Below, in pieces: positions 50,283-51,138 of a DNA stretch of 64,000 nucleotides. Position numbers and translations under genes: made by a program. The stretch's first letter is position 1; every line of letters starts with the position of its first letter. The stretch lies in the sequence record ON528734, one strand, 5' to 3'. Under the pieces are notes generated by a model. It had not been told where the DNA came from. It was given only the letters and a program-made list of their open reading frames with translations, and ran no database searches. Source of the DNA: Shigella phage ESh24.

Positions 50283-50737
50283 TGGAATTTAAAGACTTTT
50301 CAACGGGTCTTTATGTAGCAGCTAAGTTTTCAGAATTAACACTTGACGCGCTGGAAGAACTCCAGCGCTCTTTACGTGTTCCTAATCCAGTTCCTAGAGA
50401 AAAAATTCATTCGACTATATGTTATTCGAGAGTAAATGTTCCATATGTTCCATCGAGTGGAAGTTTTGAAGTAGCTTCTTCTGGACATTTAGAAGTATGG
50501 AAAACACAAGATGGATCGACTCTTGTACTTGTGCTAGATTCTGAATATCTGCGCTGTAGACACATGTATGCGCGGGCACTAGGTGCTACACATGATTTTG
50601 ACGATTACACACCGCATATAACATTGTCTTATAATGTTGGGCCCTTATCATTTAGCGGTGATGTACAAATTCCGGTCGTATTAGATCGTGAATACAAAGA
50701 GCCTCTTAAACTCGATTGGGCAGATGATTTAAAATAA
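50279..50737 (+). CDS. 57B: gp57B
   Basis: 152 aa; T4 gp57B length and position. Confidence 0.8.
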
Positions 50738-50749
50738 TTTCACAAAGTT

Positions 50750-50779
50750 GTTTACATACTGATGAGGTAGTGATACTAT
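50750..50779 (+). promoter_or_regulatory. early-type promoter (GTTTAC, 18 bp spacer, TACTAT) inside a 9 bp inverted repeat
   Basis: GTTTAC at 50750-50755, TACTAT at 50774-50779; GATGAGGTA/TACCTCATC flank the -10. Confidence 0.45.
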
Positions 50780-50809
50780 TACCTCATCAAAATTAATTAG
50801 GAAAATAAA

Positions 50810-51067
50810 ATGAAAACTTTCAAAGAGTTTGCTATAAAAACTACTATTACTGAATCTTCCCACGGTATGGAAGTAAAACTTGGAATGGCTTTAGCTGAAG
50901 CTGAGCGTCTTTTCTCTCGTATTAAAGAACTTGCTGCTGCAGTCGATCCTTCGTCTTTTAAAGGAGACCAAACGAAAGTTAAAGCACTTTTAGCATTATG
51001 CTCCGATGCGGGAGAAATCGCTAAAAATGGTTCTAAGATGAAGAAACGATTAGAAGATTTAAAATAA
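50810..51067 (+). CDS. internal-protein-like small protein with divergent capsid-targeting leader (ipI position)
   Basis: 85 aa; N-terminus MKTFKEFAIKTTITE resembles the IP capsid-targeting sequence; located after 57B where T4 has ipI. Confidence 0.6.
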   Translation: MKTFKEFAIKTTITESSHGMEVKLGMALAEAERLFSRIKELAAAVDPSSFKGDQTKVKALLALCSDAGEIAKNGSKMKKRLEDLK

Positions 51068-51079
51068 TTTCACAAAGTT

Positions 51080-51109
51080 ATTTACATAGGGTTTTAGTTG
51101 TGATACTAT
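51080..51109 (+). promoter_or_regulatory. early-type promoter, second copy of the 50729-50808 element
   Basis: ATTTAC at 51080-51085, TACTAT at 51104-51109; flanks are near-identical to the first copy. Confidence 0.4.
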
Positions 51110-51138
51110 TACCCTATCAACTACTGAGGAGAATAAAA

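Follow-up and report, generated by a model that had tools for sequence, protein, structure and literature searches.

The internal head protein (IP) gene of Shigella phage ESh24 lies between two similar early-promoter blocks, each with its -10 box inside an inverted repeat, and the locus raises the question of what these repeats are for: whether they act as DNA, as RNA, or have no selected role. The analysis covered 64,000 nucleotides (nt) of sequence record ON528734 (hereafter the window), numbered 5' to 3' along one strand; the genes, promoters and hairpins described below at these loci are on this (+) strand. The window is Tequatrovirus (T4-like) DNA with ~98% identity to Shigella phage ESh28 and Escherichia phage Lutter, and is distinct from T4. 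The answer we favour, with somewhat better than even confidence, is that the blocks are conserved early-promoter elements of ~70 base pairs (bp), similar to the promoter-early stem-loops (PeSLs) of Arbiol 2010 (PMC2839356), that bound the IP cassettes and form an RNA boundary hairpin in read-through transcripts.

The blocks constitute a direct repeat of 69 nt with 84% identity (copy 1, 50722-50790; copy 2, 51052-51120), continued by a weaker extension of 30 nt (73% identity) up to the start codons. The duplicated promoter element of ~80 bp proposed in a first-pass annotation of this DNA was thus borne out, and the shared text quoted there was exact. Copy 1 lies between 57B (50279-50737), an open reading frame (ORF) annotated as 57B or Acb1 in relatives and named Acb1 anti-CBASS protein in one of them, and the Ip5-type gene (50810-51067; 85 amino acids), an ORF annotated as Ip5 or internal head protein in relatives. 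Copy 2 is adjoined downstream by a trna.4-like ORF for a small membrane protein (MKRCELIRN…, 51139-51324), annotated Trna.4 in T4, RB9 and G28. With stop codons at 50735-50737 (TAA, 57B) and 51065-51067 and start codons at 50810 and 51139, both blocks are intergenic and stand ahead of the next Shine-Dalgarno (SD) sequence and ATG. The repeat itself begins within the final codons of 57B and the Ip5-type gene, both of which end in …DLK and the stop codon, and this reach into the coding ends places the cassette junction within the last codons of the upstream ORF. Both genes finish as …(D/E)DLK-stop in near-identical DNA (50722-50737 and 51052-51067); the end of T4 ipI differs.

Both copies appear to be strong sigma-70-type early promoters with an A/T-rich upstream region, and they have the consensus of the top-scoring T4 early promoters. 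In the block design, an UP region is followed by GTTTAC, TGn and TACTAT and then by a start box that is conserved (YYATCAA); a portion of the -35/-10 spacer is complementary to this box. In copy 1 the A/T-rich UP region is followed by the -35 hexamer GTTTAC (50750-50755), TGn and the -10 box TACTAT (50774-50779), and in copy 2 the hexamers are ATTTAC (51080-51085) and TACTAT (51104-51109); the gap of 18 nt after G/ATTTAC in both copies corresponds to 17 nt from the conventional -35 hexamer TTTACA. Copy 1 has the same bases as T4 PE2, the 57B/ipI promoter, from its -35 hexamer through into the leader, while copy 2 corresponds to PE1 as annotated in GenBank X03016 and departs from it at two bases, of which one is in the -35 hexamer and the other in the inner helix, neither of them in the outer stem arms.

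Inverted repeats around the -10 box had been reported in the first-pass annotation for both copies, for a site near 59087 and for the regB promoter, and all four were found at these places; the sites were also folded as RNA and compared with 200 dinucleotide shuffles each. Hairpin 1 (50760-50789) has arms TGATGAGGTA (50760-50769) and TACCTCATCA (50780-50789), which form 10 perfect Watson-Crick pairs around a 10-nt loop containing GTGATACTAT; as RNA it grows to 13 pairs including two G·U, with the -10 box in the loop and apical stem. Its stem ends ~3 nt beyond the probable start, leaving the SD-like AGGAAA (~50799-50804) and the ATG at 50810 outside, and none of the 200 shuffles folded as well (-17.4 kcal/mol, z -5.5). 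Hairpin 2 (51086-51117) consists of outer arms ATAGGGT (51086-51092) and ACCCTAT (51111-51117) and an inner 4-bp helix (51095-51098 with 51105-51108), leaves the SD GAGGAG (51126-51131) outside, and folds with -13.7 kcal/mol (z -2.4, 2/200 shuffles as good), which is marginal taken alone. The same is true at the second IP locus, whose early promoter lies downstream of gene e (59070-59109; -35 GTTTAC at 59070-59075, -10 TAGTAT at 59094-59099) and has arms AACTGTGA (59086-59093) and TCACAGTT (59102-59109) and a fold of -10.8 kcal/mol (z -2.1, 7/200 shuffles as good). The regB early promoter (62453-62512; -35 GTTTAC at 62453-62458, -10 TATAAT at 62477-62482, ATG at 62510) has core arms CTCTTGACTG (62464-62473) and CAGTTAAGAG (62491-62500) with one G·T; as RNA the hairpin has ~18 pairs, covers the SD AAGAGGAG at 62496-62503 and reaches -21.6 kcal/mol (z -5.7, 0/200 shuffles as good). 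The hairpins of copies 1 and 2 straddle the -10 box, so that in both the stem-loop overlaps the promoter. Rfam covariance models at gathering score detected only tRNAs in 49000-64000 and nothing at the hairpins.

The stems of copies 1 and 2 had also been called compensatory. The 3' arms differ at two bases (TACCTCATC and TACCCTATC, i.e. TACC-TC-ATC vs TACC-CT-ATC), and copy 2 has as its 5' arm another block, ~5 nt further upstream, closing a loop of 18 nt vs 10 nt in copy 1; the two copies are therefore not in-register variants of each other, and the description applies only once other phages are added, among which in-register double changes do occur.

IP loci were compared in the window, T4, Lutter, RB15, phiD1, RB9, G28, SA20RB, ECML-134, fPS-2, Killian, SYGD1, G2540 and Moon, together with IMG/VR contigs. 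A promoter block stands on each side of every IP gene in 12 loci, the number of blocks being that of the IP genes plus one in loci with one (window, T4, G28), two (RB9, ECML-134) and four (RB15) such genes; the RB15 record Z35082 accordingly has five blocks around four IP genes. The repeated copies are tied to insertions, deletions and replacements among close relatives, and they are intergenic and flank small non-essential genes in a hyperplastic region, the gene content of the IP locus varying among the 12 phages. Thus ipI in T4 occupies the position held by Ip5 in the window phage, whose Ip5-type protein begins with the targeting motif MKTFKEF… and whose gene is a swappable cassette between both blocks. 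Chimeric blocks, in which the spacer of one type is combined with the start box of another (entry L023 of the comparison, SYGD1 block 2 and Moon block 1), indicate crossovers within blocks. A block of Citrobacter phage Moon (locus 3498-3575) contains a tandem duplication of the -10 box and 3' arm (GATACTATTACCTCATCAA twice), resembling slippage or unequal exchange within the block, and the block family is present in another genus (Moonvirus).

Unrelated stems occur at the same position in different phages, namely TTGATAGAACT/AGTTCTATCAA in phiD1, GATGGAG/CTCCATC in G2540 and AGGGCTAT/ATAGCCCT in Moon, in addition to GATGAGGTA/TACCTCATC, GATAGGGTA/TACCCTATC and the 12-bp stem GTTGATAGGGTA/TACCCTATCAAC; in other registers, ATAGGGT/ACCCTAT (shifted) and AGGGTA/TACCCT (upstream of T4 frd.2) were found. 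Between the stems GATGAGGTA/TACCTCATC and GATAGGGTA/TACCCTATC stands a G·U intermediate, GATGGGGTA, which pairs with TACCCTATC through one G·U; the two stems thus represent an in-register double change. G-rich 5' arms (GATGGGGTA and ATGGGGT) pair with both start-box types via wobbles. Position 59088 pairs with 59107 as the third pair of the stem at the 59087 site; T4 has T-A there, phiD1, G28 and entry L053 have T·G, and the window and SA20RB have C-G. Over the stretch that runs from the -35 hexamer, through the stem, to the ATG, the regB promoter is identical in 8 genomes and is uninformative on covariation. Family A1, which is in register, comprises 14 distinct sequences; in it 88.6% of cells were paired vs 31-64% with the 3' partners slid, three pairs had changed on both sides, and the covariation score (0.204 vs 0.158 ± 0.023) was reached by 9/500 shuffles; in the shifted family A2 (15 sequences), 95.8% of cells were paired and one pair was double-changed. 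The covariation check across related T-even promoters suggested in the first-pass annotation therefore yielded in-register double changes and pairing that is mostly kept, with modest statistics, and relatives overall have different paired stems and not absent ones, although some blocks are broken.

The excess of structure is not confined to these sites. In the whole T4 genome, 33 distinct early promoters were chosen by consensus score on the early-transcribed strand, and the spacer, -10 box and 30 nt downstream were folded, with spacer and downstream part shuffled separately. The mean z was -2.83, with 17/33 below -2 and many at -5 to -7, and most stems of the well-folded promoters straddle the -10 box; control TAnnnT sites on the same strand (n=150) gave a mean z of -0.19 with 7% below -2 (Mann-Whitney 1e-8, Fisher 2e-8). 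A box-matched control was made with all IMG/VR matches to the 18-mer TGATAYTATTAYCYYATC, the 3' box being TAYCYYATC. The duplex between spacer and downstream box had -9.9 kcal/mol in 30 promoter contexts vs -3.1 kcal/mol in 40 non-promoter contexts (p 5e-7); on 11 lineage representatives the contrast gave p 0.016, with no pairing in 4-5 of the 11. When only the duplex between spacer and downstream box was considered in the TTTCACAAARYTRTTTACA family from IMG/VR, copy 1 alone stood out (z ~-5), copy 2 being at z -0.2 to -0.8 and the family mean at -0.6, which indicates that this family is not uniformly structured.

Whether the pairing is under selection as DNA or in read-through RNA had been left open in the first-pass annotation. 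The T4-wide excess, the diversity of stems and the double changes support selection on pairing, and further comparisons lean towards RNA. Distinct changes at paired positions were counted among close orthologues of the T4 promoter hairpins, with identity filters: 15 turned a Watson-Crick pair into G·U, 3 G·U into Watson-Crick, 2 were compensatory, 6 turned Watson-Crick into A·C and 3 were of other types, the corresponding numbers in a stricter orthology set being 8, 2, 1, 0 and 0. Changes involving G·U thus outnumber those to A·C by 18:6 (p 0.011), or 10:0 in the strict set (p 0.001). Since transitions would be expected to yield G·U and A·C equally in the absence of a strand-specific structure, this excess points to structure in the sense strand. 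Paired columns also vary less than unpaired ones (28/740, 3.8%, vs 36/384, 9.4%; p 2e-4), and the sense strand of 35 T4 promoters folds better than the antisense strand (-12.6 vs -9.6 kcal/mol, Wilcoxon p 2.7e-4). As DNA, the hairpins at the window sites have energies of -5.5 to -8.3 kcal/mol and loops of 8-18 nt, poor values for cruciforms; their z is -1.4 to -4.1 over the two strands, which, regB apart, fold equally well. We favour, on the basis of the G·U bias, the sense-strand preference and the weak DNA hairpins, a hairpin in sense-strand RNA.

By sigma-70 geometry, each promoter's own transcript is expected to start 7 nt past the -10 box, at ~50786 (A), ~51116 (A), 59106 and 62489, in every case within the 3' arm; if so, the hairpin is possible only in RNA from an upstream promoter. 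To compare the two kinds of transcript, we calculated for each, read-through RNA and the promoter's own RNA, how much free energy is needed to open the ribosome site (-13 to +3). For 35 T4 promoters this opening cost averaged 7.0 kcal/mol in read-through and 2.4 kcal/mol in own RNA (p 1e-8), and specific masking of the site, relative to shuffled spacers, was found in 11/35. The four window sites fell into two classes: the cost in read-through/own RNA was 17.6/1.7 kcal/mol at regB, whereas it was 0.9/0.4 at copy 1, 2.9/0.8 at copy 2 and 0.9/1.2 at the 59070 promoter. The single layout proposed for the four sites in the first-pass annotation therefore applies to the stems, which straddle the -10 box everywhere, and not to the function, as regB is predicted to mask its SD and the three IP-locus sites do not; the low opening costs at these three rule out masking of the ribosome-binding site as a function common to all. 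With the native T4 spacers of copies 1 and 2, the opening cost was in fact below that of 100% and 98% of shuffled spacers, respectively. A further early promoter in the window (2693-2760), which matches the T4 promoter of the alt.-2/alt.-3 region, lies inside a hairpin of -23 kcal/mol (z -4.7) whose 3' arm covers the SD GAGG, with a single U-A to U·G change relative to T4 and opening costs of 13.4/3.6 kcal/mol, which put it in one class with regB.

Hairpins that sequester the ribosome-binding site are known from T4 e, soc, 49 and I-TevI, where the promoter lies in the 5' strand of the hairpin and long transcripts fold while short ones do not (PMC3014915). On paper regB fits this scheme, as do ~11/35 of the T4 early promoters. 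However, those well-known examples involve late or middle promoters, and in them it is late genes that are kept silent in early RNA (PMC3014915), and at copies 1 and 2 and the 59087 site the 3' arm stops before the SD, so that nothing is masked. In phiD1, denV directly follows the promoter downstream of gene e and an outer helix (TTTCTCC…GGAGGGA) covers the denV SD; here a non-masking hairpin of the IP type seems to have turned into a masking one after a deletion.

We propose that the hairpin would form in read-through RNA just past the stop codon of the upstream gene and ~10 nt ahead of the next ribosome site, where it may close the 3' end of the upstream message, by partial attenuation and/or by protection from 3'-exonucleases after processing in the A/U-rich leader. 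It would also lock the spacer and start box in a local fold, and by this the downstream leader would stay open. In the regB variant the lengthened 3' arm would cover the SD, and regB would be translated only from RNA of its own promoter. The repeated blocks, in addition, could provide the homology for recombination that swaps IP genes.

The feature as such is real and already known: the two hairpins are those of X03016, and the repeated blocks with their stem-loops are dealt with in Repoila 1994 and in the PeSL papers. In GenBank X03016 (T4 tRNA region, 1985), -35, -10 and a stem-loop are annotated over each of PE2 ('pot. stem-loop structure', 1850-1894) and PE1 ('pot. stem-loop structure pot. 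IpI terminator', 2213-2250), the same two elements at the same locus as copies 1 and 2, the differences being that ipI lies between the blocks in T4 and Ip5 in the window, and that on function the record carries annotation only. According to Arbiol 2010 (PMC2839356), Repoila 1994 (EMBO J 13:4181) had seen PeSL-like sequences at two T-even IP loci; as recounted there and in PMC4122927, promoter blocks of ~70 bp flank each IP gene at two polymorphic loci and shuffling was proposed, and in these accounts nothing material separates that work from ours, the emphasis on the stem-loop having come with Arbiol 2010. The latter authors defined PeSLs by a stem-loop mostly between -35 and -10 or overlapping the -10 box, and regarded the T-even IP elements, with T4 early promoters and weaker A/T-rich stems, as analogues and not homologues (PMC2839356). 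We likewise found no homology to the RB49/phi1 PeSL (TTGACA…TATAAT, G4-loop-C4), as the blocks have GTTTAC…TACTAT and A/T-rich stems. Comeau 2014 (PMC4122927) extended PeSLs to the PST/T4 pair. In common with the present blocks, PeSLs are intergenic, repeated and flank small variable genes, and insulation of transcription and homology for modular shuffling were proposed for them (PMC2839356, PMC4122927), but the PST/T4 stems are drawn just upstream of the promoter (PMC4122927) whereas those described here straddle the -10 box, and terminator function was tested only on the RB49 stem (PeSL211/210; PMC2839356). No mention of stem-loops in early promoters was found in the eLife 2022 paper on T4 evolution or in the Hinton 2010 review of early transcription. 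What the present analysis may add, at a suggestive level, is the quantified structure excess, the RNA-type substitution bias and the split into masking and non-masking hairpins.

If the hairpins were transcription terminators or attenuators of the upstream gene, they would halt read-through at the cassette boundaries and each promoter would work alone. This function was proposed for PeSLs, and the RB49 PeSL stem-loop was tested in vivo with a lacZ reporter, the stem-loops being described as effective terminators (PMC2839356); X03016 labels the PE1 stem-loop accordingly, the SA20RB record has WebGeSTer/TransTermHP terminator calls overlapping early promoters at all four sites, and every hairpin lies directly after a stop codon, as in intrinsic terminators. 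However, no U-tract follows any of the four hairpins (tails CAAAATTAATT, CAACTACTGAGG, ACTAATTAAAA and GAGAATAACATG, A-rich or mixed), the stems are low in G+C and weaker than the G4…C4 stems of RB49, and at regB the ribosome site itself forms the 3' arm, a sign of translational control. A consensus scan of 49000-64000 found 17 terminator-like sites, including canonical ones such as 54203-54226, but none of the four hairpins. Canonical intrinsic terminators, i.e. a G+C-rich hairpin with an immediate U run, were thus rejected at these sites, and we consider termination as the role of the hairpins rather unlikely, although it deserves to be kept in mind.

It is also conceivable that the inverted repeats act as DNA, with a cruciform or single-strand hairpin that attracts recombination or a nuclease (e.g. 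endonuclease VII) and drives cassette exchange, or that tunes promoter melting. The blocks are clearly recombination substrates, as seen from the chimeras and from IP gene counts that vary between loci, either strand of the DNA gives non-random hairpins at the four sites, and for PeSLs one mini-circle crossover was mapped to the stem-loop's loop and a stem-recognising DNA-binding protein was speculated on (PMC2839356). Yet a structure symmetric in the duplex predicts neither the excess of G·T over A·C in the sense strand nor its better folding, the loop sizes and energies are unfavourable for cruciform extrusion, and ~70 bp of homology is enough for T4 recombination without structure, which makes an action as DNA very improbable. 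Only slightly less improbable, in our view, is that the pairing has no selected function and is a by-product of the shared descent of the blocks and the self-complementarity of the promoter consensus, to which templated 'quasi-palindrome correction' during replication could contribute, a process by which imperfect inverted repeats become perfect with no need for selection. Templated mutation in T4 quasi-palindromes is reportedly well documented by Ripley's rII work. In line with such an origin, copy 2 and the 59087 site are just ~2 standard deviations from their shuffles, the copy 2 spacer did no better than its own shuffles in the duplex-only test, pairing was lost in some blocks with no sign of promoter loss, and the A2 covariation fell short of significance. 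On the other hand, the structure excess is large, T4-wide and absent from control sites, the 5' arm is found in several registers relative to an invariant start box and stems unrelated in sequence share one position, variation is lower in paired than in unpaired columns, and the bias for G·U over A·C would not be expected from templated correction.

The reading of the blocks as promoter elements with an RNA boundary hairpin has its own difficulties, and the following points weigh against it. The formal covariation signal of families A1 and A2 is modest, that of A2 not being significant, and linkage over ~20 nt together with recombination could mimic part of it. The window stems are almost all Watson-Crick, and the four sites alone therefore cannot separate DNA from RNA. 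Weak or broken stems were found in RB15 blocks 3 and 5, SYGD1 block 2, Moon block 1 and entries L069 and L073, several of these blocks looking like recombinants between block types, and two early promoters in the window, 55037 (which has the upstream half of the repeat) and 55596, are without such a hairpin (z +0.2 and -0.3). The absence of the straddling stem from these promoters and blocks indicates that the hairpin is dispensable for promoter function and not always kept. At copies 1 and 2, just 1-2 kcal/mol is gained in keeping the ribosome site open, and any local hairpin tends to yield such an effect. The authors of the PeSL work favour a terminator or attenuator role, their in vivo assay having been made on the GC-rich RB49 stem (PMC2839356). 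Finally, we infer the start sites and every functional step of the proposed model from sequence.

A wider rule for T4-type phages can be suggested tentatively, and we think it possible but more doubtful than the reading given above for the IP blocks: about half of the early promoters would be built into hairpins specific to upstream-derived transcripts, through which each gene would 'know' which promoter made its mRNA, with two designs coexisting. In the long-arm design, which buries the SD, translation of a gene would require RNA from its own promoter; possible examples are regB and the promoters upstream of dexA and just upstream of denV. In the short-arm design, the arms would end at ~+3 and the spacer would be locked away, leaving the ribosome site open in any transcript, as may be the case upstream of ipI/Ip5, trna.4 and gene 41. 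By G·U pairing with several start-box variants, the G-rich 5' arms could allow the hairpin to survive in-block recombination during swaps of the anti-restriction IP cassettes. No statement of hairpins as a general, quantified property of early promoters was found in the literature searched, which excluded Miller 2003 and Repoila 1994.

Some further features of the promoters and of the neighbourhood were noted. The upstream half of the block occurs a third time (TTTCACAAAACTGTTTACA) at 55024-55110, where the hairpin around the -10 box is absent (z +0.2) and the spacer pairs at long range with the SD region, the opening cost of the ribosome site being 7.5 kcal/mol in read-through vs 0.9 kcal/mol in own RNA. 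Near-consensus sigma-70 -35 hexamers (TTGACA, CTGACA, TTGACT) occur within several 5' arms at the wrong distance from the -10 box, for example at T4 57990 and 20612 and at 62466-62471 of the window, the real -35 (GTTTAC) lying a few bases upstream. The local order in the window is gene 1, 57A, 57B, the Ip5-type gene, the trna.4-like ORF, more ORFs and a tRNA cluster. In this cluster (tRNAs at 52117-52356 and 53018-53522), an ORF of 216 amino acids (52361-53011) lies between tRNA-Gly and tRNA-Ser, and its N-terminus resembles, by eye, that of a GIY-YIG homing endonuclease of the Seg type. T4 has tRNA-Pro at the site of this ORF, and none was found in the tRNA cluster of the window; T4 segB is at a different place, between tRNA-Ile and tRNA-Arg. 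The 97-nt 'tRNA-Phe (aaa)' called by ARAGORN at 54057-54153 has no support from the Rfam tRNA model; T4 carries its small stable RNAs rnaC/rnaD at this place, and the called gene probably corresponds to one of them.

These results leave the current picture of T4 biology unchanged. Public records label these sites both 'promoter' and 'terminator', and annotators should treat them as one composite element. The regB-type variant would represent a sequence-predictable case of translation that depends on the origin of the transcript. IP genes encode injected anti-restriction proteins, with Ip1 blocking one GmrSD enzyme and Ip2 another (PMC12373910), and IPIII is required for infection of one E. coli strain; in the exchange of these genes between phages, the promoter blocks serve as the handles. 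If the proposed role is true, a hairpin that makes the cassettes self-contained in expression would help to explain why swapped cassettes work wherever they have landed.

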